From positions 1 to 56,188 of the IMG/VR virus record IMGVR_UViG_3300030329_001842: DNA of 56,188 bases. One strand, written 5' to 3'. The stretch is from a virus (taxonomy: Duplodnaviria > Caudoviricetes). A program made the translations under genes and the position numbers. The notes beneath the pieces are model-generated. The model was not told the origin of the DNA. It saw nothing but the letters and a program-made list of their open reading frames with translations, and did not search any database. Shown one piece after another: positions 14,227 to 51,356 of the stretch. The stretch's first letter is position 1. Each line of letters begins with the position of its first letter.

Positions 14227-17200
14227 ATGGCAGATAATAGAATTTACATCAAGCGTAGTGCAAAAGGTACAGACGTACCATCCAATACTGATTTAGAATT
14301 AGGTGAATTGGCAATTAATACGTATGATGGTAAATTATATGCCAAAAAAGATGACGGTAGTGCAAGTATCATAGAGATAGGAGCAAAAGGAGCTACTGGT
14401 ACTAAAGGACAAAAGGGAGAATTATCACCCGGACCGCAAGGACCTACAGGAGCTGATGGACCACAAGGTCCACAAGGAGTTGCTGGAGATAAGGGAGCTC
14501 AAGGACCTCAAGGAGCAGCTGGTCCACAAGGTATACAAGGTTCACAAGGAGTTGCTGGAGATAAGGGAGCTCAAGGTGCTACAGGTGCTCAAGGACCAAC
14601 AGGTGCTCAAGGACCACAAGGAGATGCTGGTCAAAAAGGTGCTACCGGTGCTCAAGGTACTCAAGGTGTTGCAGGAGATAAAGGTGCAACAGGAGCAGGT
14701 GGACCAACAGGACCTACAGGACCTCAAGGAGGAAAAGGAGAACCCGGTGTAGGTGCTAAAGGTGCTACTGGTGCTCAAGGACCTACAGGACCTCAAGGAC
14801 CTACAGGAAGTACAGGGCCACAAGGACCTGCTGGACCTACTGGACCAGCTGGAGATAAAGGTGGAACTGGACCTACAGGACCGCAAGGTAACGTAGGACC
14901 TCAAGGAAGCACAGGACCGCAAGGTACTCAAGGTACTCAAGGACCACAAGGTCAAAAAGGTGATACTGGAGCTGATGGAGCTACAGGTGCAAGAGCAGGT
15001 CTCTCATATGAAATAGAACTTGCTAATACTACAGACTCAGACCCCGGTTCAGGTAAACTTAAATTTAATAATTCTACACAAGCTAGTGCAACAGCAATAT
15101 ATATCAATGATTCTAGTAATGATGGTGCTAACGTAAGTTCATGGATAGATTCATGGGATAGTTACAATACTAATCAACCCGGTCATATCACTATATCTAA
15201 GTCAGCACATACTACTGGTACACACTACGTAGCAACTGCTGAACTTTCAACAATAACAGATGCTACTAATTATTGGAAATTAAATTTCGGTTCTTTATCT
15301 ATTTCTAACTCTTTTTCTGATGGTGATTTAGTTATATTAGAATTTCACAAAAGAGGTCAAAAAGGAGATACTGGAGACCAAGGAACTGCTGGAGATAAAG
15401 GTGACGCCGGTATTACAGGAGATAAAGGACAAAAGGGAGCTCAAGGTGCTCAAGGTGCTCAAGGAGCTCAAGGTGTTGCTGGAGATAAAGGTGGAACAGG
15501 TGCTCAAGGACCTCAGGGAACTCAAGGAGCTGGTGGACCTACAGGACCAACAGGAGCAGCTGGTGCTAAAGGAGCTACAGGTGCTCAAGGAACAGCTGGT
15601 ACTAAAGGACAAAAAGGAGCTACAGGAGCTCAAGGACCTCAGGGAGCTCAAGGTACTGCTGGAGACAAAGGTGCTACAGGTGCTCAAGGACCTCAGGGAG
15701 ATACAGGTGCAGGTGGACCAACAGGAGCGGCTGGAGATAAAGGAGCTACAGGTGCTACTGGACCTCAGGGACCACAAGGAACTGCTGGAGATAAAGGAGA
15801 TACAGGTGCTACAGGACCAACAGGACCACAAGGAACTGCTGGTGACAAAGGAGCTACAGGTGCTACAGGACCACAAGGTGCTACAGGACCTCAAGGTCCT
15901 CAAGGTGCTACAGGACCACAAGGAGATAAAGGAAGTAAAGGAGAAGCATCATTACCAGCTTCTACTTTCTTAATGCATGTAGATTTAACAGATACTACTA
16001 CTGCACCATCAACAAACGGAGAGATTGTTTTAAACCATGCTACATTAGGAAGTGTTACACAATTATCTATATACGAAGATGATGAGAGTGGTGGTACATT
16101 AGATGCAGTTCTAACAGATATGTTAGTAACTGGTAATAGAATTAAAATAGAAAAGAAAGATGATATAACCAAATGGGTTACTTTCGAAATGACTGGCAGC
16201 GGTGCTGATGTAGGTGATTACAGAACTGTTGCAGTCTCACATGAGGGCGGGGCAAGTGGTGCAGCTACTTCTTCTTTCTCAGATGAAGATGACGTTTATT
16301 TTTCCCTTTCAATGAAAGGTGATACAGGACCACAAGGACCTGTTGGACCACAAGGACCTACAGGACCTCAAGGACCACAAGGAGCTCAAGGACCACAAGG
16401 AGCGGCAGGAGATAAAGGTGCTCCCGGTGCTACAGGACCTCAAGGACCAACAGGAAGTACAGGACCAGATGGACCTACAGGAGCTGCTGGTGATAAGGGA
16501 GGAACTGGTGCTCAAGGACCTCAAGGAGCTCAAGGTGCTACAGGACCTACAGGACCTACAGGAGCAGCTGGTGCTAAAGGAGCTACAGGAGCTCAAGGAC
16601 CTCAAGGTGCTACAGGACCACAAGGAACAGCTGGTGACAAAGGTGCAACTGGTTCGACAGGACCAACAGGACCTCAAGGTACTGCTGGTGATAAAGGAGG
16701 AACTGGTGATACAGGAGCAACTGGACCTACAGGAGCAGCTGGTGCTAAAGGAGCTACAGGAGCTCAAGGACCTCAAGGTGCTACAGGACCACAAGGAACA
16801 GCTGGTGACAAAGGTGCAACTGGAACCACAGGACCTCAAGGACCACAAGGTGCTGTAGGACCTCAAGGACCTCAAGGTACTAAAGGTGCTACTGGTGACA
16901 CAGGACCTCAAGGACCTCAAGGACCTACAGGTAATCAAGGACCTCAAGGAGCTGAAGGTAACGTAGGACCTACAGGAAGTACAGGACCTCAAGGTACACG
17001 CGGTGGTGTAAAATACAAATATAGTTCTACCACCACAGAAGCTGACCCCGGACAAGGTTATTTTAGATTTGATAGTACAACTATAGGTAGTATTACTGAA
17101 ATGTATATTGATGACGCTGATGTTAACGGCGTTGATATGCAAACATGGATTAGAACATGGGATGATTCAGATTCTACGTCAGTTCATAAAGCAGTAATTC

Positions 17201-20200
17201 ATATTCATTCAGCTGATTCTTCTGATAACACATACTGTTCATTCTTAGTTAAAGGTGGTGTCAATATGACAGAAGAGTCTGGTTATTTCAAAATTGAAAA
17301 CCACACTACTGGTATGGGTGGTGCATTACCAACTAATGATGAAGATTGTGTAATATCAGTTTCTTATACTGGTTATACTGGACCTCAAGGAGCGGCTGGA
17401 CCAACAGGACCTCAAGGACCTACAGGAAGTACAGGACCTCAAGGTGCTAAAGGTGCTACTGGTGCTACAGGACCAACTGGACCACAAGGAGCAACAGGAC
17501 CACAAGGACCTCAAGGTGCTGCTGGAGATAAAGGAGGAACAGGTGCTCAAGGACCTACGGGACCTACAGGACCACAAGGTTCTACAGGACCTCAAGGTCT
17601 TGCAGGTGATAAAGGTGGAACAGGTGCTACTGGTGCAGCAGGAGATAAAGGTGCACCCGGTGCTACAGGACCACAAGGAACACAAGGTGCTGCTGGTGAC
17701 AAAGGAGGAACTGGTGATACAGGTGCAACTGGACCACAAGGTGCTACTGGTTCTAAAGGAGCTACTGGTGCTCAAGGACCAACTGGAACTACAGGACCTC
17801 AAGGACCACAAGGAGCAGCAGGAGATAAAGGTGCAACTGGAACTACAGGACCTCAAGGACCACAAGGAGATACAGGACCACAAGGAGCAGCAGGAGATAA
17901 AGGTGCTACAGGAGCTACTGGACCTCAAGGACCTCTTGGAGATAAAGGTTCAAAAGGAGGGACTGGTGCACAAGGAGCAGTAGGTGGTGTTAACTATACG
18001 TTTAGTACTACTACCACAGATGCTGACCCCGGTTCAGGTAATTTAAGATTTAATCATGGTACTATAGGGTCAGTTACTTCTATATACATAGATTTAGCAG
18101 ATACTAATGGTACAGACTTTACAGACTGGATTGATTCATTTGATGATACCGATAGTGGTACATTAACAATTAATTCAGCAGATTCTACAGATTCAACATT
18201 CTGTAATTTTACAGTAACGGCAGTAGTGTCTGCCACTGGTTACAGAAAATTAACATGTACCAATATTTCAGGTACATTACCAAGTAATAGTGAAAGTATA
18301 GTATTACAATTCTCATCATCTGGTAGTAAAGGAGCGCAAGGTTCCACTGGAGGTACAGGACCTCAAGGACCTCAAGGAACTGCTGGTGACAAAGGTGCAA
18401 CTGGTTCGACGGGACCAACTGGACCTACTGGACCAACAGGACCTCAAGGAACTGCCGGTGATAAAGGAGCACCCGGTGCTACAGGACCTCAAGGTTCTAC
18501 AGGACCTCAAGGACCTACAGGTGCTGCTGGTGACAAAGGTGGAACAGGAGCTCAAGGACCTCAAGGAAGTACAGGACCTCAAGGACCTACAGGAGCTGCT
18601 GGTGCTAAAGGAGCTACTGGTGCTCAAGGACCTACAGGAAGCACAGGACCAACAGGACCTCAAGGTTCTGCTGGAGACAAAGGTGGAACAGGTGCTCAAG
18701 GACCTCAAGGAGCTCAAGGTGCTCAAGGTGCTCAAGGAGCTGCTGGTGATAAAGGAGGAACTGGTGCCACTGGACCTCAAGGAGATGCAGGACCAACAGG
18801 ACCACAAGGAACTGCTGGTGATAAAGGTGCTCCCGGTGCTACAGGACCTACAGGACCACAAGGTACTGCTGGTGACAAAGGAGCTCCCGGTGCTACAGGA
18901 CCTACAGGACCACAAGGAAGTACAGGACCTCAAGGTGCTGCTGGAGACAAAGGAGGAACTGGTGCTACAGGACCAGATGGACCTGCTGGACCACAAGGAC
19001 CTACAGGAGCAGCTGGTGCTAAAGGAGCTACTGGTGCTGCTGGACCTACAGGACCAACAGGAAGTACAGGACCTACTGGACCACAAGGAAGTGCTGGTGA
19101 CAAAGGTGCAACTGGAAGCACAGGACCTCAAGGAGATGCAGGACCAACAGGACCACAAGGAAGTGCTGGAGACAAAGGTGCTCCCGGTGCTACAGGACCA
19201 CAAGGACCTACAGGAAGTACAGGACCAACAGGACCTCAAGGAGCTGCTGGAGACAAAGGAGGAACTGGTGCTCAAGGACCTCAAGGAGCTCAAGGAGCTC
19301 AAGGTGCTCAAGGTGCTGCCGGTGACAAAGGAGGTACAGGAGCTACAGGACCAGACGGACCTGCTGGACCAACTGGACCAACAGGAGCTGCTGGTGCAAA
19401 AGGTGCTACAGGAGCAGCTGGACCAACTGGACCTACTGGAAGTACAGGACCTCAAGGAAGTGCTGGTGACAAAGGTGCTACTGGAAGCACTGGACCTCAA
19501 GGACCTCAAGGAAGTGCTGGTGACAAAGGTGCTACTGGAAGCACTGGACCTCAAGGACCTCAAGGAAGTACAGGACCTCAAGGAAGTGCTGGTGACAAAG
19601 GTGCTCCCGGTGCTACAGGACCACAAGGACCTACAGGAAGTACAGGACCAACAGGACCTCAAGGAGCTGCTGGAGACAAAGGAGGAACTGGTGCTCAAGG
19701 ACCTCAAGGAAGTGCTGGACCTCAAGGACCTACTGGTAGTGCAGGACCAACAGGACCTACTGGTGGTGCAGGACCAAAAGGACCAACAGGAACACCTGCT
19801 GGACCACAATACGCTTATAACAACGCTGGTACCTCTGGTGCCACACAGAAAGGTGAAATGGCCTTTAACAATGCAACAAATGCAAACATTACAAACATTT
19901 ACGTTAACGAATATTCAGCAGACGATTCTTCTAACAGTATATCAAGCTGGTTAGCTGACTTAGGTAGTGGTGACCAAGAAGTAGATATAAGAATTGTCGA
20001 AGATGGTGTCCCATCTAATTTCTTAATTTTAAGAGCATCTGCAACAGCATGGTCAACATCTGTTTCAGGTGGACTTACAGAATACGCAATAGGATGTACA
20101 CATACAGCATCTACTGGTACAAGTATACCATTCTCAAACGGAGATACAGTTACATGTTCTTTCAACCCAGTAGGACAGAAAGGAGCAAAAGGACAGAAAG

Positions 20201-21159
20201 GTGCTGCTGGAGGCGGTGGCGGTGGAGGTTCTAAAGGACAGAAAGGACAAAAAGGTGCTACAGGTTCTCAAGGACCAACTGGAAGTACAGGACCTCAAGG
20301 AAGCACAGGACCAACTGGACCACAAGGTAGTGCTGGTGATAAAGGAGCAACTGGTGCTCAAGGACCTCAAGGAAGTACAGGACCAACAGGACCTGCTGGA
20401 GATAAAGGAGCTACTGGTGGTGGCGGTGGAGGTTCTAAAGGACAAAAAGGACAGAAAGGTGCTACAGGACCAACTGGACCTCAAGGACCTCAAGGAGACC
20501 CCGGAGACCCCGGTGGTGGAGGATGTCACTTCCCACCCGGTACTTGTTTTGCACCCGGTACACCAATTATGTTAGCTGATGGAACAACCAAAGCTATTGA
20601 AGAAATTGATGATGGTGAAGAAATATTAATTTATAATACAGAAACTGGTGAGTATGACGTAGAAGTACTTGAACATGGTTCCTACGCTACATACAGAAAC
20701 CACTTTGTAGATTTACACTTTGACGACGGTTCAAAGATTACCTCTACACATGAACACCCTTATTTGACAGCAGATAAAGAATGGGCTATTGTAGAGTTTG
20801 AAGAATGGATGAGAGAAAGATATCAACAAGATACAGTATTCAAAAATTTAAAACTTGAAAGTATATTAGGTATACCAACTGGTGCTAAAGGTATAGGACT
20901 TAAAGGTAAACAATTAGTACAAAAGAAAGTTGTAGATGTAGAAAAACACTGGTCAACTGGTGACAGACAGAATGCAGTATGGAATATTATAACTAAATCT
21001 AACAACTATGTTGTAGATGGTTTAATAGTAGGAACAGAAACAGATATGGATTGGGATGAGATTAATCTTTACGCTATAACTGAATATGGTATGTCATTAG
21101 AAGATATGTATCAAATGTTTGTTGATGAAGGAACACTTCCAGACAGGAGAGGTGAATAA
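14227..21159 (+). CDS. giant collagen-like fibre (2310 aa): N-terminal fibre anchor, six Gly-X-Y segments, five globular inserts, C-terminal Hint domain
   Basis: RIYIKRS...[13 protein letters not shown] anchor; roughly 1400 residues of G-X-Y; CFAPGT..T..HP..VWNI...NYVVDG. Confidence 0.92.
16552..16823 (+). repeat. 101-bp exact direct repeat inside the collagen gene (16552-16652 and 16723-16823)
   Basis: Identical copies of ggacctacaggagcagctggtgctaaagg...ggtgcaactgg. Confidence 0.8.
19447..19554 (+). repeat. perfect 54-bp tandem duplication inside the collagen gene
   Basis: ggacctcaaggaagtgctggtgacaaaggtgctactggaagcactggacctcaa, two copies. Confidence 0.85.
20545..21036 (+). other. Hint (Hedgehog/intein) autoprocessing domain starting at Cys2107
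   Basis: Block [19 protein letters not shown], block B TSTHEHP, block F VWNI..NNYVVDG; ends LIVGT instead of VHN. Confidence 0.85.
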
Positions 21160-21368
21160 TGGACGATTGGGAAAGAGAAGAGTTACTTATCCGTATGGAT
21201 GAGAGAATAAAAACCATTTATAATAGAATGGATAAATTTGAAAATCTCTTCACTAATCACTTAGCACACCACGAAATGTGGGAGAATGATATTAAGACGT
21301 CTTTACAACGCTGGTTAGCTGTATTAGTTACAGCAGCTGGTGGAGCGGGCGCAATGGGGATGATGTAA
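21159..21368 (+). CDS. small coiled-coil protein with C-terminal TM (holin/hemolysin-like)
   Basis: LIRMDERIK...; hydrophobic C-terminus; GAGGTGA SD. Confidence 0.6.
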   Translation: MDDWEREELLIRMDERIKTIYNRMDKFENLFTNHLAHHEMWENDIKTSLQRWLAVLVTAAGGAGAMGMM

Positions 21369-21369
21369 A

Positions 21370-21840
21370 ATGGCAATAACAAGAGATTCGACAATGACGT
21401 TAGATACGTTAGGAACAAGAGTCAGATTACTGACAGGTATCGAAGCTGTAGAAGTAGACGATACTGATTTGTCGGTTCTCATGACAATGGCGATAGAATG
21501 GGTAGAAGAGCAGGAAGGTACTTCATTTACAGTGAATACCAATGATTTAGTAGACCAAGCAGTATGTTACTACACTTCATATTTATTATGTGTAGCACAG
21601 AACGGTATGGGAGTAGAAGATATGAAGATTGGAGATATCTTTATGTCTTTCACTAAGGAAGACCCATATGGTAAATTCTTAGACATGGCAAATGAAGCTT
21701 TGTTACAAAAGAATGCACTAAGTATTAAAACCTCTACCTATAATGCAGATTCAAGTCTTGGAGATATAGACTGGAAAAAGAATATTGATGGTTCAGGCAG
21801 TACATTAAATGTGCGCCAGAAACCCCGCAATATAGGATAG
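21370..21840 (+). CDS. putative head-tail adaptor
   Basis: Position; helical; RVRLLTG...DQAVCYY. Confidence 0.6.
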   Translation: MAITRDSTMTLDTLGTRVRLLTGIEAVEVDDTDLSVLMTMAIEWVEEQEGTSFTVNTNDLVDQAVCYYTSYLLCVAQNGMGVEDMKIGDIFMSFTKEDPYGKFLDMANEALLQKNALSIKTSTYNADSSLGDIDWKKNIDGSGSTLNVRQKPRNIG

Positions 21841-21844
21841 GTAT

Positions 21845-23219: not shown

Positions 23220-23220
23220 A

Positions 23221-25835: not shown

Positions 25836-25839
25836 ATTA

Positions 25840-25855: not shown

Positions 25856-25911
25856 CTACCGTCTGCTATTAGTATATACATACGTTCGACGGAACGTAGG
25901 AGTAACAAAGT

Positions 25912-28232: not shown

Positions 28233-30956
28233 ATGGCAAGTTTAACGGGTCTAGCATTCCAGATTGATTTCCTCGTAGGCCGAGGTTCGAGAAGGAACGC
28301 GGTTAGCACCGTTAAAGACACCATTGACCAAATTAACTTAGTTGCTAAACAAGGTGCAACAAAAGCTTCTGCTGATAGAAGAACAAAATTAGAAAGAGAT
28401 TTAAATGAATTAGGCGAAATTTCTTCACAGTCTACCAATAAACTTATGGCAGGACGTGAAGCAGCCGCTAAATCTATGGCTTCAAGAGTTGCAAAGACAG
28501 CGTCAGCTATGACTAGGAAAGCTAAGACTGATACTAGTGGTTTAGATGAAGTAGGTAAGAAAACCAAGTCTGTAGCAAATCAAATGAAACAAGCATTTAG
28601 AGGATTAAATGCTGAACTTAAAGATAGAGGAATAACACAATTAGCTGGTACAGGATTTGGTTCTTATAAAACTACCATGGATTATGCAAGTAGGGAAAGA
28701 GAAGAAAGAGAACAGATATTAGCTATTGAACAACAAATAGTTAATTCTAAAAAGGCAGCTGGTAAAGAAACTGAAGCAGAAGTCAGAATGTTACAATTAA
28801 TGAAGGACTTTGAAGCTGAACTTTTAGCTTTAGAAAAAGAAGATAAAGCTACTCAAGCAGAAATTAATAAACTTCAGAAACAGTATATGAAAGATTTCTA
28901 TGAGTTAGAACGTGCAGAAGCAGCTCATATTAGAGAAACTATACAATTAAGGAGAGAAGCAGGAGACCAGATTAGTAGAATGACAGACCAAATTGGTACA
29001 TCATTACGTAATGCCTTTGTTTATTCCACTGCTGCTGTCGCTGCTTTCTATTATAAGTTAAACGATGTTCTTACTACATTTAAAGATTTTGAAAATGAAT
29101 TGATTAATGCTCAATCTATTTTCCAAACAACACAAGAAACATTATTCGGATTATCAGACCAAATTGCAACTTTTGGATTACAATATGGTATTGAATTACA
29201 AAATGCAACAACTGGTCTTTATCAACTTGCTTCGGCAGGTTTAAGCGCTAATGATTCAGCTGAAGTATTAAATAACACACTTTTACTATCTATGGCTGTT
29301 CAAGGAGACCATAATACCATTTCTAAGTTAACTACACAGACTATTTTTGGTTTTGGTATGGAAATGTCTCAGAGTTCTGAACTTGTAGATAAGTTTGCAC
29401 ACGCTATTAACAAGTCTTTAATTGAATACCAAGATTTAGCTAGTGCTGTTAAGTTCGCTATGCCTTTCTTCGTATCCACAGGCCAGAGCGTAGACCAATT
29501 ACTAGGTTCTTTGCAAGTATTAACTAACCGTGCTTTAGAAGCAGGTATTGCAGGTCGTGGTTTAAGACAGGCTTTAGCAGAGTTCGCTGAAGGAGCAGAA
29601 GATAATACAAGAGCATTTAGAAAGATGGGTATTGAAATTGTCAATACTGACGGTACCTTCAAACAACTAACAGAGATAGCACGTGATTTCCACGATACTT
29701 TCGGTGCTACATCTACAGACGTAGAATTAATGACCACATTGTTAGACGACTTAAACGTCCGTGGTGCTACAGCGTTTGTTCACTTAGTACAAAACGTAGA
29801 TGAATTTGAAGGAGCTGTTAATGACCTTCAAAATTCTGCGGGGTCAGCGGCAGAAATGGCAGAGATACAACAACAATCTTTAACTAATCAAATACAAATT
29901 CTTAAAAACGCACTATTGGCTCCATTTATCATTGGCGACGAGATTGGTAAAGCCCATGGTTATATAAATGAATTTCATATGACATTACATAACATGATTC
30001 AAACATTCTCTGATTTGATATATGTTGTATTGCCTGATGGTACTTGGCAGCTTACTGAACTAGGTCAAGGTTTGAAAACCTTTGTTATAGAGGCTTTTAA
30101 ACAATTAACAGTTTTACTTAAAGGAGGAATGAATCTATTCAAAGATATGGGTAAGCATGTTCAAACTGCTACTGGATTCTTTAATATGATATTAGTTCCT
30201 TTAAAGATAGTTGTTGGTCTTATGGACTTCTTAGGTACTGCTGGTATGCAATTTGTACTTACGATGAGATTATTAAATAATGTTTTACCAGTGTCTACAG
30301 CAATGCTTTGGGCAAACACAGCAGCTGAAATTGCTTCTATGGAAGCTACAATGGCAGATACTACAGCAATACAAATGAAAAAGACAGCATTAATGGGAAT
30401 GATAGTGGCTCAGACCGCGGCTTTCGTAGGTATGGGTTTTATGGCTTATGCTACTATACAGATGGCTAAAGGTAATGAAGGATTAGCAACGACCTTTTCT
30501 GTATTAGGTGGTGCAATATTTGGTGTAGCAGTGGCTACGCAAGCGTTAAAAGCTGCTGGAATGGGCGGTCCAGCTGCATTCTTTACAGCAGCAGCAGCCG
30601 GTGCAGTAGCTGGTTACGCTTATATGAGATTAATGAAAGATATGATGGCAGCACCAGTATTACCAGAAGTTGAACCATTGGATTTATCAGGATTTGGTGC
30701 TCAAACAGATGAAACATTTGATACAGGTGGAAGAATTCCTATGTATGATACAGGTGGTAGACCTAACCATAGGGCAGTTATGGTAGAACCCGGAGAATCA
30801 ATTATATCAAAAACAATGAACATGGCTGACAGTATGGGTAACGAACAAATTAAGATAGTAATCGAAGGTGATGTTTATGATGGGGATAATTTTGCAGAAA
30901 AAGTGGCAGAAGCTTTACCAGCTTCATTACGATTACAATCAAGGAGAGGATATTAA
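28233..30956 (+). CDS. tail tape measure protein (TP901-like core)
   Basis: GLYQLASAGL, LTNRALEAGIAGRGLRQ, GSAAEMAE; hydrophobic C-terminal helices; FDTGG. Confidence 0.9.
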   Translation: MASLTGLAFQIDFLVGRGSRRNAVSTVKDTIDQINLVAKQGATKASADRRTKLERDLNELGEISSQSTNKLMAGREAAAKSMASRVAKTASAMTRKAKTDTSGLDEVGKKTKSVANQMKQAFRGLNAELKDRGITQLAGTGFGSYKTTMDYASREREEREQILAIEQQIVNSKKAAGKETEAEVRMLQLMKDFEAELLALEKEDKATQAEINKLQKQYMKDFYELERAEAAHIRETIQLRREAGDQISRMTDQIGTSLRNAFVYSTAAVAAFYYKLNDVLTTFKDFENELINAQSIFQTTQETLFGLSDQIATFGLQYGIELQNATTGLYQLASAGLSANDSAEVLNNTLLLSMAVQGDHNTISKLTTQTIFGFGMEMSQSSELVDKFAHAINKSLIEYQDLASAVKFAMPFFVSTGQSVDQLLGSLQVLTNRALEAGIAGRGLRQALAEFAEGAEDNTRAFRKMGIEIVNTDGTFKQLTEIARDFHDTFGATSTDVELMTTLLDDLNVRGATAFVHLVQNVDEFEGAVNDLQNSAGSAAEMAEIQQQSLTNQIQILKNALLAPFIIGDEIGKAHGYINEFHMTLHNMIQTFSDLIYVVLPDGTWQLTELGQGLKTFVIEAFKQLTVLLKGGMNLFKDMGKHVQTATGFFNMILVPLKIVVGLMDFLGTAGMQFVLTMRLLNNVLPVSTAMLWANTAAEIASMEATMADTTAIQMKKTALMGMIVAQTAAFVGMGFMAYATIQMAKGNEGLATTFSVLGGAIFGVAVATQALKAAGMGGPAAFFTAAAAGAVAGYAYMRLMKDMMAAPVLPEVEPLDLSGFGAQTDETFDTGGRIPMYDTGGRPNHRAVMVEPGESIISKTMNMADSMGNEQIKIVIEGDVYDGDNFAEKVAEALPASLRLQSRRGY

Positions 30957-43581: not shown

Positions 43582-43632
43582 ATTGTCACTTCCTTTCGGT
43601 TCATTATTTTAGGCGACGCACCTATATAAAGT

Positions 43633-43722
43633 TTATGGTGATTCGTCGCATTTTAGGCATTTTTTAGAGCCATCATAGTAAGTTAAGATGGCTCTACTTC
43701 CACATAGTGGGCATGGTGTCAT
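43633..43722 (-). CDS. CPxCG-type zinc-finger microprotein (29 aa)
   Basis: MTPCPLCGSRAILTYYDGSKKCLKCDESP; ATGA overlap. Confidence 0.6.
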   Translation of the reverse strand: MTPCPLCGSRAILTYYDGSKKCLKCDESP

Positions 43723-43781
43723 TTATAATCAACCAGAATGCGCTTAACTGGTTTCTTTTTGACGTTTGAAGTTAATACCAT
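43719..43781 (-). CDS. basic 20-aa peptide
   Basis: MVLTSNVKKKPVKRILVDYK; TAATG and ATGA coupling at its two ends. Confidence 0.45.
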   Translation of the reverse strand: MVLTSNVKKKPVKRILVDYK

Positions 43782-43963
43782 TATCCTTGCGGTTGCTTTC
43801 CAGCTTTGTACAATGGTGAGTCTTCATCGACTGTTACCCATCCTACACCGTTCCAGACTTTGGTTAATTGTTTCTCAGCTTTAGGTTCTTCCTTCTTAGG
43901 TTCTTCCTTAACTTCTTCCTTAACTTCTTCTTTTGCTTCTTTTTTGTCTGCTTTCTTGGCCAT
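43781..43963 (-). CDS. small K/E-rich protein (60 aa)
   Basis: ORF track; tightly coupled in the operon. Confidence 0.65.
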   Translation of the reverse strand: MAKKADKKEAKEEVKEEVKEEPKKEEPKAEKQLTKVWNGVGWVTVDEDSPLYKAGKQPQG

Positions 43964-43965
43964 AC

Positions 43966-44013
43966 TTATTCACAAGTACAATCACAAGTGCATCCTTCTT
44001 TATTACAACACAT
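43966..44013 (-). CDS. 15-aa metallothionein-like peptide
   Basis: MCCNKEGCTCDCTCE; AGGAGG upstream; exactly fills the gap between two ORFs. Confidence 0.5.
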   Translation of the reverse strand: MCCNKEGCTCDCTCE

Positions 44014-44015
44014 GT

Positions 44016-44384
44016 TTACTTTTTCCTCCTTGTAGTTTTTTTGCGCGTAGTTTTACGTTTAGTAGTTTTACGCTTTCTCGCTGCTGCGGCCTTACGACCT
44101 TTTTCTGGGTGCATTTTATTATGCTGTGCAGCAGTCATCTTTTTAAGGTTACTTTTTCTGGCAGTCTTAGCAGTATGGACTCCGGGTTTACCCTTTCCTC
44201 CTTTACCACCACTTTTATGGTGTACTACTTCGTTTTTACCAGCATTAGCTTTCCTTCGGTAGTAGTGAGGTGATTTACCACCTTTCCATGACCCGTTTGA
44301 TTTACCATAACGCGCCATAGGTGATTTTTTACTCCACCTTTTCTTACGATTGGCACTTGTATCTTTAAATTTCTTTCGTGCCAT
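44016..44384 (-). CDS. extremely basic protein with a degenerate HNH-like core
   Basis: NGSWKGG...VVHHK...SNL...QHNKMH; R/K/T-rich termini. Confidence 0.7.
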   Translation of the reverse strand: MARKKFKDTSANRKKRWSKKSPMARYGKSNGSWKGGKSPHYYRRKANAGKNEVVHHKSGGKGGKGKPGVHTAKTARKSNLKKMTAAQHNKMHPEKGRKAAAARKRKTTKRKTTRKKTTRRKK

Positions 44385-44393
44385 CCTTAATAC

Positions 44394-44726
44394 TTACTCC
44401 TTTTCTTCTTGTGCTTCGCTAGCTTCTTCGCTACTTTCGGCTTCTTCTTGTACAGATACTTCCTCTGTTTGTTGCTTTTGAACGGCATCGTCCTTCTCCT
44501 TAATGAAATCATTCCACGAATCTAACAATTCATTTTTTTCGAAATACTCTTGCATTAGAGAGTTCAACATTTGCCTTTCCCTGTTGAGTTGGAAAAGCTT
44601 ATCGTCGGCATCTCTATAAACATGAATTAAGAAATTCATATTAGACAAAGTATCTCCGCCATCATTCTCTGCAATCCATTCTTCTATCTTTTTGACCCTT
44701 TTGGTCAATCTTTCGTTATTTGCCAT
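44394..44726 (-). CDS. hypothetical coiled-coil protein with an acidic tail
   Basis: ORF track; leaderless after the promoter at 44747-44762. Confidence 0.7.
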   Translation of the reverse strand: MANNERLTKRVKKIEEWIAENDGGDTLSNMNFLIHVYRDADDKLFQLNRERQMLNSLMQEYFEKNELLDSWNDFIKEKDDAVQKQQTEEVSVQEEAESSEEASEAQEEKE

Positions 44727-44746
44727 ATATCTTTATCTCCTCGTAG

Positions 44747-44762
44747 TATATAAAGCTTTCGC
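44747..44762 (-). promoter_or_regulatory. BRE/TATA promoter overlapping the primase stop codon
   Basis: GCGAAAGCTTTATATA on the minus strand. Confidence 0.75.
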
Positions 44763-45868
44763 TACTCACAGGGACACTTCTCACATTTACAGAGATTTCT
44801 CTCCTTTAATGTGGATTTTTTGTATCTCCATCCAAAGTTTTCACTGAACTTTACAATCTGTCTACCGGGCTCAGTTGGGTCATCATTATACCAACCGTGG
44901 TCTCCAGCAGGTTCATCATAGATAAATCTGAATACATTAGAGATATCCGTTAGGCTCCAATTTGCATTCAATAACTCACCTACAATAGCTTTATTTTCTT
45001 CATAAGAACTGTGTCCCTCTACTATATTATGCTCTATAAGCTTAATAATACACTCTCTAGGTGCTAAATAGGGCCTATCCTTAATAGAGCCTGAAAAAGA
45101 CCTTACTACGAACTTGTCTTTTCCTTTGAGCTTATCTAATAAATAATCAACACTATTAGATACAGTGTGTTTTATATCAGCCTCGTCACAAAGATAATCA
45201 ACCATGTCTCTCTGTGCCCGTTTTGATTTAACTACGTCAGGTTTATCTCTGGGTTCCATTGCTAGACCATATAGTTCTTCTATATCCATAGTCATAACCT
45301 CCTCTACTGATAAGGGTACACACCACACGCCTGTAGGTTCCCCAGTCAGTTTACTTATATACTGTGTGTTGGGAATCCTTCTTAAGCAAGCTACACTATT
45401 ATTAATGCAAGCTTGGTCAAGCGTACTTAATTTAAATTTCTTCTTCAGATGCGTCAAATACTCTCGTAAAGCTTGTCGCTTCTGGTCGTCCGATAAGTCC
45501 AACGGGGAGTAGAAGTCTATGTTCATTTGAAAGCCCTTCCCCCCTGTAAGATATATCCTCGGGGTAATTTTGTTCGGTTTGCAATACCGCCTTAAAAACT
45601 TTCTTATATCTTTTAAACATTTACTCACATCCTTGTCATGGTCGAAATCGAACCATATACCATTTAGAATTGCAGAATCATAGTTAGGTTTACCATCTAC
45701 ATCTTTCATATCATCGAAGGCATATACACTGGTATAACAACTTTTCTTTCCGTTATACTGTTCCATTAACTTTTCTATATCTTCAACAGAGTAGCATCTA
45801 GCTATTCTGGCTGGGATTCCGAATTCTCTGTAATACATTCTTTCAATATCTCCACTTTTTGACACCAA
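44762..45868 (-). CDS. priS: archaeo-eukaryotic primase (PriS) with a fused PriL-CTD-like domain; likely start MYYREFG at 45838
   Basis: REFG, CYTSVY, WFDFD, TGGKGFQ, LRRIPNT, WCVPL; C-terminal PREC...QI...LCKCEKCPC. Confidence 0.85.
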   Translation of the reverse strand: MVSKSGDIERMYYREFGIPARIARCYSVEDIEKLMEQYNGKKSCYTSVYAFDDMKDVDGKPNYDSAILNGIWFDFDHDKDVSKCLKDIRKFLRRYCKPNKITPRIYLTGGKGFQMNIDFYSPLDLSDDQKRQALREYLTHLKKKFKLSTLDQACINNSVACLRRIPNTQYISKLTGEPTGVWCVPLSVEEVMTMDIEELYGLAMEPRDKPDVVKSKRAQRDMVDYLCDEADIKHTVSNSVDYLLDKLKGKDKFVVRSFSGSIKDRPYLAPRECIIKLIEHNIVEGHSSYEENKAIVGELLNANWSLTDISNVFRFIYDEPAGDHGWYNDDPTEPGRQIVKFSENFGWRYKKSTLKERNLCKCEKCPCE

Positions 45869-46185
45869 TCAGTTGGTATAGCAAAGATGTCTGCACCGTC
45901 ACATTGTGAACCGTGCATTACTAAAACTGTAGCGTGTTCATCTTGTGCTACCATTTCTCCTACAGTCTCACATATTGTGAGATGTTCTCTTGGGTCTTCT
46001 GCATTTATACGGTAGGTCTTGAATGTGCTGGCTGCATCATACCAAGTAAGTTTAACTATAGGGCCAACAGAACCTAATGTTTCTGCCGTTCTACCTGTAT
46101 TATCTACCATATTTCCACTTCTAGTGTTTATTTTCTTTTCCTTTAGTTTTGTCATTTTTCCATTCCTCATACATTCCTGCAACAA
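45802..46185 (-). CDS. small beta-barrel protein; likely start MVDNTG at 46110
   Basis: VKLTWYDA...CETVG...IFAIP..W.QKV pattern seen in marine phage proteins. Confidence 0.65.
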   Translation of the reverse strand: MLQECMRNGKMTKLKEKKINTRSGNMVDNTGRTAETLGSVGPIVKLTWYDAASTFKTYRINAEDPREHLTICETVGEMVAQDEHATVLVMHGSQCDGADIFAIPTDWCQKVEILKECITENSESQPE

Positions 46186-46504
46186 TACCTAAATCACCAT
46201 AGTGTTTATAAAACTTTGCATGAGATGGTGTCTCATCAACACTTATAAAATCACTTGGTCTATCGAATATTAATCTATCATATGGTATTTGATGAATTTC
46301 AAGCCATTGTTCTGTGGCAAATTTAACTGCTAAGTCATTTGGTCTTTCGCACCATATAACTATAGTATGTTCTTTATTTACCCATTGCATAAATTCTACT
46401 ACATCTTCTATAGGTTTACAATCTTTGATATAATCAACTATACCAAACTGTATACCTTTAGCTGGTGTACATATGATATTATCTAATCCGAATACTAAAT
46501 TCAT
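46121..46504 (-). CDS. HAD-like phosphatase homologue lacking the first catalytic Asp
   Basis: LVFGLDNIIC (DxD position), IWCER, TEQWL..HQIPYDRLIFDRP..VDE. Confidence 0.65.
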   Translation of the reverse strand: MNLVFGLDNIICTPAKGIQFGIVDYIKDCKPIEDVVEFMQWVNKEHTIVIWCERPNDLAVKFATEQWLEIHQIPYDRLIFDRPSDFISVDETPSHAKFYKHYGDLGIVAGMYEEWKNDKTKGKENKH

Positions 46505-46695
46505 TGTTTTATTGCAATAATATCTTTCTTGTTTACAATAACTGTGCCTTTATCGCCAGTTAAATATACAAAATTCTCGTCGTCGTTGGTTATTTTACCA
46601 CGACCAACTTTCGTTCTATCCTCTTCTCTCCAGACTATCTTAACCTCATCATCCTTGAGGAAGGTCATTAGTCCTTTCATATCACTTTCTTCCAT
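46501..46695 (-). CDS. small Sm/Hfq-like fold protein
   Basis: VKIVW...GRGKITNDDENFVYL...TVIVNKKDIIAI. Confidence 0.55.
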   Translation of the reverse strand: MEESDMKGLMTFLKDDEVKIVWREEDRTKVGRGKITNDDENFVYLTGDKGTVIVNKKDIIAIKQ

Positions 46696-46754
46696 ATTAA
46701 TTCTCCTATTAGGAGCGGCAACGCGCCGTCCTATATATACTTAGTATAAGCTAG

Positions 46755-46768
46755 TATATAAAGCTTTC
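46755..46768 (-). promoter_or_regulatory. BRE/TATA promoter
   Basis: GAAAGCTTTATATA on the minus strand. Confidence 0.7.
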
Positions 46769-46770
46769 TA

Positions 46771-47574
46771 TCATTCCAAGTTAATTTCTACTTCTTTATC
46801 TGTGGTTTCTGATAATGATAAGAACATTTCGCTCTTATAATCTAGTATAACTTCAGGAAACCTTCTACCTGCCACTAATGTGATAAAACCTTGGTCTCCA
46901 CCAAAAAGATTTTCATCCCACCATCCATCAGGTATAATCTCCATAACTTCTTTATAGAAATCTATCATATATTCTCTTTCTCCTATCCATGCACCACTAC
47001 ATAGATGTTTAAAAGGAGAACCTAGCCATTCATACACTTCTTCGAGTTCTCTAACTCTTTTCAATTCGTCTTTCCATGAACCTAAATCAATTGGTGCTTT
47101 TCCGTGAGCATCCATTATACCTTGACCTGTTTCAAGATTAGGCCATTGTGGTATTTCAGCACTGAATACACATCTAGCTTCTTTACGTTGAAAAGACCTC
47201 AATACTTCATCAACAGCATCATATCCTAATACCATTACATCAGTTGCATCTAAAGCCATCACATATTTTGTTTTAACTAGACTTAAATATTTTGTCATTT
47301 TCCTTATTTTATCAAGAAAATCGAAAGGTTGTTTCATAGGTATAACAACCAATCTGTCAGATAAGTTAAGTTGTTTAAAGCAGTTTTCTAATAGTGTTTC
47401 TTCACTAGGAATACTCCACGTAATAACTGTTATATCTTCAGACATTTCACCTTCACATGGTGGTTCTGAAAAGTATTTATTTACTGCATCATCCCAACGC
47501 TTCTCCATCTTTGCGGGGCCATTGGCGTGTACAATAGGTACTAAATTTTCACTTAACTTATTTTTAAAATACAT
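46771..47574 (-). CDS. PLOD/LH3-type glycosyltransferase domain protein (apparently circularly permuted)
   Basis: YVMALDATDV, VFSAE..WP, HLCSGAWIG, GDQ, LDYKSEMF; PIVHANGPAK at the N-terminus. Confidence 0.75.
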   Translation of the reverse strand: MYFKNKLSENLVPIVHANGPAKMEKRWDDAVNKYFSEPPCEGEMSEDITVITWSIPSEETLLENCFKQLNLSDRLVVIPMKQPFDFLDKIRKMTKYLSLVKTKYVMALDATDVMVLGYDAVDEVLRSFQRKEARCVFSAEIPQWPNLETGQGIMDAHGKAPIDLGSWKDELKRVRELEEVYEWLGSPFKHLCSGAWIGEREYMIDFYKEVMEIIPDGWWDENLFGGDQGFITLVAGRRFPEVILDYKSEMFLSLSETTDKEVEINLE

Positions 47575-48191
47575 TATAACGATTCCACCATTTCATCCAT
47601 TGAAGGTTTCTTATCCCATAAATTTATAGCTATAGCATATCTTTTACCTTTAGTAATCTCAGTTACAGCGTGTAGTTTACCTGCATCGAATATAACCAAT
47701 CTATTAGGAACTGGTGCTATAAGTTCATAAGGAGCTGTTAAATCCATCTCATGAGTATCATATACTTTCAAATAACCACCTTCACACTGCGGCTCACCCA
47801 TAGGAGGGTAGTAGACAGTTCCTAATTTAGGACTAATTACTTCTCCCTTTTCATGCCACTTAGCTTCATCTTTATCAAAGTGATGGTTTAATGCATATCC
47901 ATTGTTTATAGCATCACCGTTTGTTATTATTTTATCTTTTGATAATATACCAGTCCAATGTTCAAAACCTTCTAAATCAGTTCCTACTAATTGTGGGGGA
48001 CAGTTGTATCTCCATATAGTTTCTATCAACTCATGTCTAACATCCATAGGATAGTTACTATTCCACCATCCACTCCACCATCTATATCCTTCTTTCCAAA
48101 AATCTTCATCTTTTTGAATTTTAGAAAGTAATTCTTTATCTTGTATAAAGTCATCTATTATTATCATCGGTAATGGTCTCCTCCTACCCAT
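47574..48191 (-). CDS. 2OG-Fe(II) oxygenase (prolyl-hydroxylase-like)
   Basis: HFD, EGG.L, PNRLVIFD..LHAV, KRYAIAIN; real start may be MIIIDDF. Confidence 0.8.
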   Translation of the reverse strand: MGRRRPLPMIIIDDFIQDKELLSKIQKDEDFWKEGYRWWSGWWNSNYPMDVRHELIETIWRYNCPPQLVGTDLEGFEHWTGILSKDKIITNGDAINNGYALNHHFDKDEAKWHEKGEVISPKLGTVYYPPMGEPQCEGGYLKVYDTHEMDLTAPYELIAPVPNRLVIFDAGKLHAVTEITKGKRYAIAINLWDKKPSMDEMVESL

Positions 48192-48802
48192 AATACAAGT
48201 GACTCACGAGTACCTTTAGTTACTTCAGTTACTCTATGCATCATATAAGAAGGGAATATAACTACAGTTCCTTTACCACGTGGTGCGTTAAGAGATGATT
48301 GCCCTCTCCATAATTGTAGTTCTCCTCCTTCATAATCATCACCATCAGTTAATTGAACTGTAAGACTGACTTTTCTTTGTCTTTGCATACCTGCACCACA
48401 ATCCATGTGCCAATCATAGTGTCCACCACCTTCTCTATATATAGTATGTTGTATAGCATCTCTACCATGAGATAGGTTAAAATTCCATACGTTTCTGTTA
48501 GCTTCTTCTACCATGGTCCATAATTTCTTATATAACCATATAAAATCATCACCGTGATGTACTGTATCACCATCAGTATAAGGTTGGTTTCCATTTAACC
48601 ATCTTATCTCTGATTTCCTGAATACTTCACTAGTACTACCATCTTTACCAGTTTTTCCTACTTGTGGAGGAACTTTCTCCGCTTCTTCTTGTATTAGTTT
48701 TATTTCTTCATCTGTAAATGCGTTTTCGAAATAATAATATTCTGCCATATTAACATGGCTCTCATCTATCGCATCTACCCATATCGTTGCTTTATCTATC
48801 AT
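48164..48802 (-). CDS. 2OG-Fe(II) oxygenase (P4H/PKHD-like)
   Basis: RKS, HYDWHMD, RKVSLTVQL, YEGGEL, FPSYMMHRVTEVTKGTRESLV. Confidence 0.88.
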   Translation of the reverse strand: MIDKATIWVDAIDESHVNMAEYYYFENAFTDEEIKLIQEEAEKVPPQVGKTGKDGSTSEVFRKSEIRWLNGNQPYTDGDTVHHGDDFIWLYKKLWTMVEEANRNVWNFNLSHGRDAIQHTIYREGGGHYDWHMDCGAGMQRQRKVSLTVQLTDGDDYEGGELQLWRGQSSLNAPRGKGTVVIFPSYMMHRVTEVTKGTRESLVLWVGGDHYR

Positions 48803-49358
48803 TCTTTACCTCGTTAAAGAAGAATGTCTGGAATAATCTTCCATCTTGCATATCTTCTCCAAAATATTCATCTGCTGCATGCCATAAATCTCCTCTAAAG
48901 ATTATAGCTCTATTAAATACATTAGACACTACATCTTCTCGTGTCCATTTATCATAATTATCACCATCTTCTTCTATCTTTGCTCCGTCATTATCACTAT
49001 ACATACGTGAGCCTGTTTCTTTATGCTTATAAAAGGAAGTTCCTGAATTATATACTGGTTCAGGGTGTAAATAAACTATACAAGACCAGTCAGTGTGATG
49101 GTCTGAATGTACCCATGTATTGGTTCCTTCAGTTACAAACTGATATGAACCTGTATATTCTCCTAATTTCCAGTGCATTTCATCTATTTCTATACCTAAT
49201 ATACGTTCTAAATGCTCTCTAACACCTCCACCTACGAAGGTTTCTGTTCTAGTTCCGGGATAATTCCCACTTACTTTGAATTTCTGACTTAAAGCGAATT
49301 CTCTAATTCCTTCAGGGTCGTCATAAAATCCATCTACTACTACTATTTCTTTTCTCAT
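48792..49358 (-). CDS. 2OG-Fe(II) oxygenase-like protein (DUF6445-like)
   Basis: VDGFYDDP, YPGTRT, WVHSD, IVYL, GTSFY, NVFNR, WHAA, RLFQTFF. Confidence 0.75.
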   Translation of the reverse strand: MRKEIVVVDGFYDDPEGIREFALSQKFKVSGNYPGTRTETFVGGGVREHLERILGIEIDEMHWKLGEYTGSYQFVTEGTNTWVHSDHHTDWSCIVYLHPEPVYNSGTSFYKHKETGSRMYSDNDGAKIEEDGDNYDKWTREDVVSNVFNRAIIFRGDLWHAADEYFGEDMQDGRLFQTFFFNEVKNDR

Positions 49359-49966
49359 TACGTCTCCTTTTTAACAAATGAAACTATAATATATCGAGTT
49401 CCTTTTGTTGTTGGTCTTCCACCATGTCTATGCGTTACACTTGGGAATAGAGTGCAATATCCTGCTTTAGGATTTGCTAGTGTTTGTTGTCTTGGGAACC
49501 AAGTTCCTCCACCTTCAAAGTCTGTATTTAATCCCACTGTAAAGGTATAATCAGCATGGTCATGGTGTATATCCAAGGCTGATTGGTCTGTATCTTTATA
49601 TCTTGCAATAAAGTCTTCTGAGGTAGCTCTTGTCCAAGATGTACCTTCTAATCCCCATATGTGTCTTGCTATAGGGTGACAATATTGATTTAATACATAA
49701 TCATACATATCTTTTAATTTTAAATCGTCTAATAATATATCTGTGGTTGGGTAAAACTTATGTCTTGCTGTAGTCCACTCTCCTTCTTTCTCAGCATGTT
49801 CTATGACTAAATTACAAAATTCTTCTGTGAACAGAGGAAATCTATAAATTTCAGGTCCTATTTTTTCGACGACTAAGTCCCATTGTTTATCTCTGGTTCC
49901 TCTAGCAATCATTTTCTTAGACCATGCTTCTCCGTCTAACTTATATGCTTGTAATTTTGGGTTCAT
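49358..49966 (-). CDS. stand-alone PLOD-like lysyl hydroxylase catalytic domain
   Basis: PEIYRFPLFTEEFC, YPTTDI, FIARY...Q..L..HHD..YT..VGLN..FEGGG..F, THRHGG.PTTKGTRYIIVSFV, matching the C-terminal domain of procollagen-lysine hydroxylases. Confidence 0.82.
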   Translation of the reverse strand: MNPKLQAYKLDGEAWSKKMIARGTRDKQWDLVVEKIGPEIYRFPLFTEEFCNLVIEHAEKEGEWTTARHKFYPTTDILLDDLKLKDMYDYVLNQYCHPIARHIWGLEGTSWTRATSEDFIARYKDTDQSALDIHHDHADYTFTVGLNTDFEGGGTWFPRQQTLANPKAGYCTLFPSVTHRHGGRPTTKGTRYIIVSFVKKET

Positions 49967-50769
49967 TTTACTGCTCCATCAGGTAAACCTGTATCACTGC
50001 CTACAATATTGAATTCTCTTTGTTGAACGATGTCAGGATTTACTGCAAATGCATTTAGGGTGGGAGGGTATTTAAAGCTTACGTCTGGACGTGGATGTTC
50101 TGTATATGTAGAACATAAAAATTCGTCTGCTGGTATTATACCTTTATGTACATTATATTTTCTTATTTTCTTTATACCTGATTTAGATAACACATATCCA
50201 TATGTACAATATGAAAAATTAGGTTTAACTAGATTTTTAGCTACTCGTTTCTCAGGAATTACTTGTGCTACTCTTCCAAGATATAATAAATCCCAGTCTT
50301 CTTCCATTACTTCTAATGTATCAATAGCTATATCTCTCTGTAGTTCCATACTACTATCAAAGACAGCATCATCCTCTAGTATAGTAACAGGTCCATCACA
50401 ATCATTCCATATTGCCCAATGACTTAATGTACAACCTATTTCACCTTTAGTTAACGGTCTTGACCACCATTTAGCCCAAGCTGAATCTATAGATAGTGCT
50501 TCACCTTCATCCATTTCCCAGTCAAATAGTTTAAAATTATTTTCTTTTAGATATTCATCTGTTATTTCGTCACCGACTCTATTATGTTCCCAATGTGTAG
50601 TCCACTCTACCCGCAAATCTGGAGCAGTATGACCTTGTTCATTTATTCGGTGTGATTTATCATTACCTTCATCATCTGTGTATATCTCAAATCCATTTTC
50701 TCTTAACATTAAATCCATAAGGTGTCTTCTATCTTCTCTGGTTTTTATATTTATAACATAAGTTTTCAT
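49963..50769 (-). CDS. GT25 glycosyltransferase, COLGALT (procollagen galactosyltransferase)-like
   Basis: YVINIKTREDRR, RPLTKGEIGCTLSHWAIW, ILEDD, WDLLYLGR, PNFSYCTYGY, IIPADEFL. Confidence 0.82.
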   Translation of the reverse strand: MKTYVINIKTREDRRHLMDLMLRENGFEIYTDDEGNDKSHRINEQGHTAPDLRVEWTTHWEHNRVGDEITDEYLKENNFKLFDWEMDEGEALSIDSAWAKWWSRPLTKGEIGCTLSHWAIWNDCDGPVTILEDDAVFDSSMELQRDIAIDTLEVMEEDWDLLYLGRVAQVIPEKRVAKNLVKPNFSYCTYGYVLSKSGIKKIRKYNVHKGIIPADEFLCSTYTEHPRPDVSFKYPPTLNAFAVNPDIVQQREFNIVGSDTGLPDGAVK

Positions 50770-51356
50770 TTCCAGCTCTCCTCATCATATCCTGTTAATT
50801 TAAATAATCTTTTAAGGTATTTATTAGCAAGTATATTATCTACTAATTCTTGATTCCAATACTGTTTCCAACCACCTTCTACTAACCTTTGTCTACCCTT
50901 TCCTAACACATCATAATCAGGTGTATTGATTGTAAAGAAAAGTTCATCTCCTAATTCTTCTGCCTTTTCTTTTAATTCTGGTATTTCCATTAAAGAACCA
51001 TACATATCATCACATTTAATAAAATAATCAGGAGTAAAACCATCTTCTTCCCATTGTTTAACTTGTTTCATCAATTCTAGATTCATCAAATTATTCTTTA
51101 AATAATCATCAAAGTTATCTAATTGCTTATGGTCAAATAATACAGCAGTTATCCATTCATAAGGATTCCTTGTATTTACTATTTTTTTATATCCATCCTT
51201 AAAGGAGTTGTTATCGTAGTTATTTCTTCTACCTCCAGCTCCCTTTTTGGTAGGCATATCAAATAAATTAGTAAAAGCCCAGAACATAGTAGCACTGCCA
51301 TTTGCTCCTATCCCCCACCAGTGTATCTTATATTCGTCTGATGTAATCATACCCAT
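50766..51356 (-). CDS. divergent sulfotransferase-like protein
   Basis: GANGSAT (5'-PSB-like), TRNPYEW, WKQYWNQEL, FKLTGY. Confidence 0.55.
   Translation of the reverse strand: MGMITSDEYKIHWWGIGANGSATMFWAFTNLFDMPTKKGAGGRRNNYDNNSFKDGYKKIVNTRNPYEWITAVLFDHKQLDNFDDYLKNNLMNLELMKQVKQWEEDGFTPDYFIKCDDMYGSLMEIPELKEKAEELGDELFFTINTPDYDVLGKGRQRLVEGGWKQYWNQELVDNILANKYLKRLFKLTGYDEESWK

Follow-up and report, generated by a model that had tools for sequence, protein, structure and literature searches.

IMG/VR virus record IMGVR_UViG_3300030329_001842, a linear sequence of 56,188 b that is referred to here in its entirety as the window, carries the gene for a giant collagen-like protein (14227..21159, plus strand) and a cluster of seven minus-strand open reading frames (ORFs; 46771-51356) that lies directly 3' of the gene for a family-B DNA polymerase (PolB). 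CheckV estimates the record to be 80% complete, and two close relatives of 67 kb are 96% complete. The seven ORFs overlap one another, and PolB upstream of them, by 1-28 nt, and a Pfam search of the cluster returned GT_PLOD, 2OG-FeII_Oxy_3 (twice), DUF6445, an OGFOD2-like family and Glyco_transf_25. The two loci were originally predicted, from the DNA letters alone, to encode a collagen substrate and the enzymes that hydroxylate, glycosylate and possibly sulfate it, and we examined this prediction by profile, structure and genome comparison.

The collagen gene is an uninterrupted ORF of 2310 codons for amino acids (Pfam Collagen, E 8e-173), and its product, the proposed substrate, comprises a 68-aa N-terminal domain, eight G-X-Y runs with 477 triplets in all, five non-collagen domains of ~110-125 aa between the runs and a 209-aa C-terminal tail. 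The collagenous lysines, which had been described as sitting essentially all at Y, number 70 at Y and 0 at X, and 39 more lysines lie outside the collagen runs. The residue preceding these 70 lysines at X is D in 42 cases, Q in 11, A in 8, S in 5, T in 2 and G and P in 1 each; by this tally, the lysine motifs named in the original prediction (G-D-K, G-A-K, G-Q-K, G-T-K and G-S-K, each followed by G) are real. The commonest residues at X are P (164), A (140) and D (58), and those at Y are T (167), Q (141), K (70) and A (62). Animal lysyl hydroxylase (LH) requires Lys at the Y position of G-X-Y. A comparable order is seen in the collagen ORFs of loci L105-L124, where P, D, E and R are all but confined to X, and T, Q and K to Y; in animal collagen, Arg is most stabilising at the opposite position, not at X.

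The tail of the collagen (20530..21159, plus strand) resembles a Hint domain of the intein/hedgehog type. When searched alone against Pfam, it matched Intein_splicing with E 1.2e-5 over positions 1-153 of the 155 in the profile, a match below the cut-off, as were further matches to Hom_end_hint, Hint, Hint_2 and Vint, and PDB entry 8w20, a protein with an intein C-terminal domain, matched with E 2.4e-5. The motifs CFAPGT and THEHP (within a THEHPY block) are present, and the terminal His-Asn of splicing inteins is not visible in the tail sequence. The tail is a candidate self-cleaving C-terminal module. It is kept in the relative G003; G001 and G002 end differently. The collagen of another LH-bearing virus (L108) ends in Peptidase_S74, a self-cleaving chaperone, so that two distinct modules, a putatively autoprocessing Hint-like one and the self-cleaving Peptidase_S74, occur at the collagen C-terminus, an arrangement reminiscent of the procollagen C-propeptide.

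Within the cluster, the ORF at 49358..49966 (minus strand) encodes a 202-aa protein that corresponds to the PLOD-type LH domain alone. A phmmer search of PDB aligned its residues 24-199 with residues 527-714 of human LH3 (E 6e-26) and also matched the LH domain of mimivirus L230 (E 1.7e-19). The Fe(II)/2-oxoglutarate (2OG) ligands H134, H179 and R191 are invariant in 18 homologues, D136 is kept in at least 90% of them, and these residues align with the LH3 stretches HHD, THYH and GTRY. The PLOD-like assignment is therefore supported, and hydroxylation of Lys in X-Lys-Gly is predicted for this protein, with indirect support from the co-occurrence and adjacency of LH and collagen genes.

The adjoining gene (49963..50769, minus strand) shares 4 nt with the LH gene and, in other viruses, forms a fusion with it; its product is a single-domain, 268-aa glycosyltransferase (GT) of family GT25, a candidate hydroxylysine galactosyltransferase. 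It matched Pfam Glyco_transf_25 with E 1.4e-17 (64.7 bits, cut-off 24) and, in PDB, residues 373-533 of COLGALT1, the catalytic GT2 domain, with E 1.8e-20, compared with E 0.015 for a bacterial GT25 and E 0.028 for mimivirus R655; the predicted likeness to COLGALT thus holds. Its ILEDDAVF stretch aligns with VFEDDLRF of COLGALT1, which contains the EDD metal-binding motif defined for the GT2 domain in PMC12003778. The GT1+GT2 architecture of COLGALT1 is absent, the 268-aa protein matching the GT2 domain only, and for lack of the GT1 domain we call it COLGALT-like, without claiming orthology.

The third transferase, encoded at 46771..47574 (minus strand), is a GT-A glycosyltransferase of 267 aa that has the collagen glucosyltransferases as relatives and is a candidate for the transfer of a second sugar. 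A profile of 23 homologues matched R699 (E 2.1e-9) and the GT domain of LH3 (E 3.2e-7) in PDB and no other family at E 1 or below. An AlphaFold 2 (AF2) model with a predicted local distance difference test score (pLDDT) of 93.4 gave LH3 or R699 in all thirteen top-listed Foldseek rows (E ~3e-7, template modelling (TM) score 0.45-0.51). D109 and D112, which form a DxxD motif, H16, N18 and G19 are invariant in the 23 homologues. Both by profile and by fold, the PDB matches are thus collagen glucosyltransferases only, in agreement with the PLOD-like GT that had been predicted; within the loci compared, a transferase of this R699/LH3 type is restricted to the clade of the window (5 of 80 LH loci).

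Three other 2OG-Fe(II) oxygenases had been proposed, and the Pfam matches bear this out (2OG-FeII_Oxy_3 twice and DUF6445). One, at 48164..48802 (minus strand, 212 aa), is of the PKHD/prolyl-4-hydroxylase type: it matched 2OG-FeII_Oxy_3 with E 9e-16, the PKHD-type hydroxylase PiuC in PDB with E 1.2e-7 and an NCBIfam Fe2+-dependent dioxygenase family below the cut-off. Its homologues are found in 62 of the 80 LH loci, often straight after the collagen gene, and it is a candidate second collagen hydroxylase. The 188-aa DUF6445 protein (48792..49358, minus strand; Pfam E 1.3e-13, phrog_1644 E 5e-37) apparently has a 2OG-oxygenase-like fold, because an HxD...H pattern is visible in its sequence; homologues occur in 11/80 loci, and viruses of the L022 type have one between the collagen gene and a gene for a GT4-GT25-LH fusion. 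The third oxygenase (47574..48191, minus strand, 205 aa; 2OG-FeII_Oxy_3, E 8e-10) belongs to a family found in four of the 80 loci, those of the closest relatives of the window only. Sequence searches of PDB with this protein and with the DUF6445 protein gave no useful match.

The last ORF of the cluster (50766..51356, minus strand) encodes a 196-aa protein with a sulfotransferase-like fold, which appears to be a variable accessory gene. It had no match in Pfam, NCBIfam or PHROG; a profile of 12 homologues matched SULT4A1 weakly (E 0.0027), and an AF2 model (pLDDT 83) gave a best Foldseek E of 0.02, yet nearly all top rows were sulfotransferases. Hallmarks of sulfotransferases that depend on 3'-phosphoadenosine-5'-phosphosulfate (PAPS) are a Lys in the 5'-phosphosulfate-binding (5'-PSB) loop and an RxPxxRxxS motif in the 3'-phosphate-binding (3'-PB) region. 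RNPY is invariant in the family, and the loop Lys of distant members (PMKTAST, PMRTGT) is replaced here by GANGSAT. Of the four close relatives examined, L009-L011 lack the gene, and L012 has it at another place. The predicted sulfotransferase likeness is thus weak but consistent, catalytic competence is doubtful, and the sulfation suggested in the original prediction receives little support. A second sulfotransferase-like ORF is located at 2344-3027 of the window (Pfam Sulfotransfer_2, E 0.0012, below the cut-off; RNPY..R..S motif), and BLASTP detected no significant similarity between it and 50766-51356.

To place the cluster among its relatives, we scanned viral contigs with an LH profile, which detected relatives in 289 contigs, and kept 80 loci for locus counts; adjacency was scored when a co-oriented collagen ORF had at least 30 triplets. 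A collagen ORF lies 0.4-3.3 kb upstream of LH and co-oriented with it in 56/80 loci, and in 18 of the 24 loci without one the sequence upstream of LH is shorter than 2.5 kb. The LH is often the C-terminal domain of GT4-GT25-LH (~780 aa), GT4-LH or GT25-LH fusions in other viral contigs, and all but one of the 12 LH ORFs scanned for fusions were multi-domain. Viruses of the L022 type (~55 kb) show the order collagen, DUF6445, GT4-GT25-LH, PKHD oxygenase, so that four of the window's seven families adjoin the collagen gene there. Collagen is present in all four close relatives of the window (LH identity 75-85%) and in 24 of 30 further LH-bearing records, the six without it all being at most 23% complete; when only LH-bearing viral records of at least 90% completeness are counted, collagen is present in 14/14 (12/12 of the further records). 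The association extends to cells: collagen ORFs were found in 5/5 bacterial genomes with LH compared with 3/14 control genomes. The collagens of LH-bearing viruses are also long, mostly 195-477 triplets, compared with 31-92 in LH-less viruses.

A virus without LH provides a complementary view. The relative G036, which is 81% complete and has 63% identity in PolB, shares the gene order of the window, and neither LH, the rest of the seven-gene block nor the collagen gene was found in it. At its junction between PolB and the p127 homologue, ~270 bp stand in place of the 4.6-kb cluster, and its fibre slot (L102 5200-17744) holds three giant proteins (1034, 1580 and 1565 aa) made up largely of lectin domains of the Laminin_G_3/ConA-like kind, which suggests that the slot is a swappable adhesin/fibre cassette. 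The PolB-p127 junction is also empty in L099. At the same junction, L021 carries GT25-LH-GT_PLOD together with one different oxygenase, and this content points to GT25, LH and GT_PLOD as the core enzymes. The enzymes therefore co-vary with collagen in relatives, and they group with collagen enzymes and not with lipopolysaccharide (LPS)/capsule or DNA-modifying families; on both counts, the conditions named as refuting the original prediction turned out in its favor.

These findings together make it probable, on the strength of sequence comparison, that the virion carries a very long, collagen-like fibre that is modified in the host cytoplasm by virus-encoded enzymes. This interpretation is carried by homology, by the catalytic motifs, by the fusion of genes and by the joint occurrence with collagen, and from these we infer the substrate, the modified site, the identity of the sugars and the order of the steps. 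The 202-aa PLOD-type hydroxylase would turn lysines at Y, mostly in G-D-K-G, into hydroxylysine with Fe(II) and 2-oxoglutarate; the COLGALT1-like GT25 would then put a first hexose on the new hydroxyl, and the R699/LH3-GT-like transferase would attach a second sugar. The PKHD-type and DUF6445 oxygenases, which both adjoin collagen genes in other viruses, probably make further hydroxylations, and the third oxygenase (47574-48191) and the sulfotransferase-like protein would be optional extras. The Hint-like C-terminal domain may cut itself off after aiding the register of the three chains.

Several observations weigh against this interpretation, in which the chemistry is predicted from homology, gene fusion and co-occurrence. 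Proline occupies 164 X positions compared with 11 Y positions in the collagen triplets, and because of this scarcity at Y animal-type 4-hydroxyproline is not expected. The placement of lysine does not set LH-bearing viruses apart: their collagens have 6 Lys at X and 1665 at Y (23 ORFs including that of the window, some of them near-duplicates), and in those of LH-less viruses, 9 lysines are at X compared with 142 at Y (12 ORFs from 10 records at least 90% complete, a sample drawn using Lys-containing peptides and hence biased). The 70:0 split of the window is extreme, but LH-less viral collagens are Y-biased as well; we accordingly do not take Lys-at-Y as a mark of viruses with LH, and regard the position of Lys as permissive, not diagnostic. 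Nor does collagen imply LH, which was found in 0/10 records that carry collagen and reach at least 90% completeness. Many of the viral LH loci are near-duplicates, and the counts given above therefore overstate independence. Finally, the match of 46771-47574 to Pfam GT_PLOD (32.1 bits, cut-off 27) is only partial, and its sequence blocks are permuted: in LH3 and R699 the HxNGP block is C-terminal, whereas this protein has it at the N-terminal side.

This permutation bears on the alternative that the enzymes act on the collagen but by a non-animal route, by modifying another residue, by adding other sugars or by direct glycosylation of Thr at Y. Thr fills 167 of the 477 Y positions, three extra oxygenases in the cluster have no assigned target, and GT4 stands in for the permuted third enzyme in other viruses. 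The sugar, too, could differ: for mimivirus L230, Luther and co-workers are said to have found in 2011 that the sugar placed on hydroxylysine is glucose and not galactose. The LH match, however, extends over the entire LH domain and the ligands are kept, GT25 is far nearer to COLGALT1 than to any other solved GT25, and the third enzyme matches collagen glucosyltransferases only; we thus consider a non-animal route unlikely, with the animal-type modification of the viral collagen remaining the better account.

In the window, 25.6 kb separate the cluster from the collagen gene; the cluster is on the opposite strand and belongs to the replication module, and this location raises the alternative that these are auxiliary, host-directed genes that modify host proteins, other viral proteins, lipids or glycans and not the collagen. 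In papers on Poseidoniales viruses, 2OG-Fe(II) oxygenase and prolyl 4-hydroxylase are classed as auxiliary metabolic genes, a classification that favors this alternative. Cellular homologues lend it some weight as well. Stand-alone LH homologues occur in the filamentous sulfur bacteria Thiothrix, Thiolinea, Leucothrix and Cocleimonas (34 loci including L207 and L212), and the closest cellular ones, from Thiotrichaceae, are 55-63% identical. Among the 34 cellular loci, which are mostly from Thiotrichaceae, a collagen ORF was found within 10 kb in 0/34 and GT25 in 1/34. Five filamentous sulfur-bacterial genomes that were checked have collagen-like ORFs elsewhere in the genome, and these bacteria are possibly users or donors of the same chemistry. 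An auxiliary role, however, can hardly explain why LH implies collagen, why in other viruses the two are adjacent and the enzymes are fused to one another, and why the cluster and the collagen are jointly absent from G036, and we give it only a small chance. Less likely still is a mere coincidence, within this clade, of two accessory modules (collagen gene and enzyme cluster) that have nothing to do with each other: the clade offers five genomes with both and one well-covered genome with neither, G036 being the only LH-less relative that covers both syntenic sites, so that a single ancestry event could suffice, but the association recurs in unrelated viral lineages (~55 kb and ~175 kb, with different architectures) and in bacteria.

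A virally encoded collagen-modifying pathway would have a precedent in mimivirus, which, like the virus described here, encodes collagen-like proteins together with LH- and GT-type enzymes (L230, R699, R655). The bifunctional L230 (lysyl hydroxylase and glycosyltransferase) and R699 are documented, the latter being presented in PMC9546862 as a collagen galactosylhydroxylysyl glucosyltransferase. The two systems differ in several respects: mimivirus is a giant virus that infects amoebae and its enzymes are multi-domain, whereas the window belongs to a ~67-kb HK97-type tailed virus, probably of an archaeal host, that encodes the three enzymes separately (202-268 aa each). Its glucosyltransferase-like protein is permuted, and its GT25 is much nearer to COLGALT1 than to R655.

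Similarities to the animal PLOD1-3/COLGALT1 pathway are equally clear, as all three catalytic modules have homologues there, the metal and cofactor motifs are conserved and Lys is placed at Y. In animals, LH3 also has glucosyltransferase activity, and PLODs and COLGALT1 form a complex (PDB 8zgc). Unlike the animal enzymes, those of the window are unfused and have neither signal peptides nor an endoplasmic reticulum (ER) context, the accessory domain of LH3 and the GT1 domain of COLGALT1 are absent, and the collagen has Pro at X and not at Y.

Among viruses, the nearest comparison is with the fused GT4-GT25-LH, GT4-LH and GT25-LH enzymes of marine T4-like viruses and ~55-kb contigs (phrog_61, annotated as '2OG-Fe(II) oxygenase'), whose LH is 44-49% identical to that of the window. 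Both groups share the GT25 family and the PKHD-type and DUF6445 oxygenases, and the collagens of the fused-enzyme viruses also have Lys at Y; there, however, the enzymes lie directly 3' of the collagen and GT4 is the extra transferase, whereas the window has separate genes and an R699/LH3-type transferase. A more distant parallel is found in bacterial operons for which Iyer, Abhiman, de Souza and Aravind (2010; PMC2938197) predicted collagen-like/tail-collar proteins together with beta-hydroxylase, PhyH dioxygenases and sulfotransferases. As in our proposal, a prokaryotic collagen-like protein would be hydroxylated by co-encoded 2OG dioxygenases and then modified further, with sulfation proposed; in contrast, the operons are bacterial and their dioxygenases are not of the PLOD type, and the passages of that paper covered here include no GT25 or LH3-type glycosyltransferase.

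Taken together, the comparisons support the view that this system is an unfused variant of the mimivirus/animal pathway for collagen lysine modification in a tailed, probably archaeal virus. The system as such is not peculiar to this virus, since its fused counterparts occur widely among marine viral contigs. We found no publication describing this system, although gene tables in the supplements of magrovirus papers may list such genes, and searches of one literature library yielded no paper joining magrovirus with collagen or lysyl hydroxylase with an archaeal virus; the literature on phage collagen-like tail fibers that our search retrieved does not mention hydroxylysine.

To our knowledge, the glycosylation of hydroxylysine in collagen is regarded as animal chemistry, with mimivirus as the sole viral precedent. 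A bolder proposal, which we put forward as a long shot, is that a marine archaeal virus possesses a complete hydroxylysine-disaccharide pathway in the form of three minimal enzymes and a self-cleaving, procollagen-like collagen, and that such toolkits of prokaryotic viruses, unfused in the window and fused in phages, represent the pool behind the multi-domain animal and giant-virus enzymes PLOD, COLGALT, L230 and R699. The presence of all three enzyme types in tailed viruses of prokaryotes would itself shift the origin of the pathway, or at least its reservoir, to the microbial virosphere, and the 2OG oxygenase and prolyl hydroxylase 'auxiliary metabolic genes' of marine archaeal and cyanobacterial viruses would then be virion-finishing enzymes and not genes of host metabolism. 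ER-independent, soluble, single-domain enzymes of 202-268 aa could also serve the production of hydroxylated and glycosylated recombinant collagen in bacteria.

The remainder of the window fits a tailed virus. A domain scan of the morphogenesis module, encoded on the plus strand, identified the large terminase (6683-8347), the portal (8392-9666), a cement protein (10930-11328), the HK97-type capsid protein (11345-12427) and a tape-measure-like protein (28233-30956). The collagen ORF and a 506-aa ORF directly 5' of it (12512..14032, plus strand) follow the capsid gene and precede the head-tail genes. The PHROG matches of the 506-aa protein are all families of unknown function, and no homologue was found in the collinear G036, which is also without collagen; speculatively, the protein might be a fibre partner. 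PolB, terminase and capsid gave distant matches or none, and no close relative, among 50,697 phage records.

The host is rather likely to be archaeal, as had been predicted, mainly because the window encodes an archaeal-type translation initiation factor, aIF-1A (55666-56010, 114 aa; NCBIfam NF003084, 97.5 bits, cut-off 91), and the assignment leans chiefly on that gene. A search for homologues yielded 313 at E 1e-5 or below, the best 120 of the 313 having 65-94% identity, and the nine homologue clusters that were looked up were all on contigs of at most 68 kb; the gene thus seems to be conserved across an abundant viral group.

Contigs of a marine metatranscriptome run match parts of the 42.5-55.7 kb region in pieces, exactly on 47582-47975, a match that is not proof of transcription. 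The replication module also contains a squalene/phytoene-synthase-like gene (54329-55048; Pfam SQS_PSY, E 4e-28), of which G036 has a copy that is 67% identical. A tRNA-Glu gene with anticodon TTC is located at 1013-1088 on the minus strand, and the ORF at 3018-4019 encodes a Cas4-like nuclease of the PD-(D/E)XK type, which matched PDDEXK_1 in Pfam (E 2.5e-25) and, below the cut-off, cas4 in NCBIfam. Upstream of PolB in another record (G004; L101 1327-2667), a 447-aa ORF combines a weak GT25-like region with an FkbM-type methyltransferase domain.

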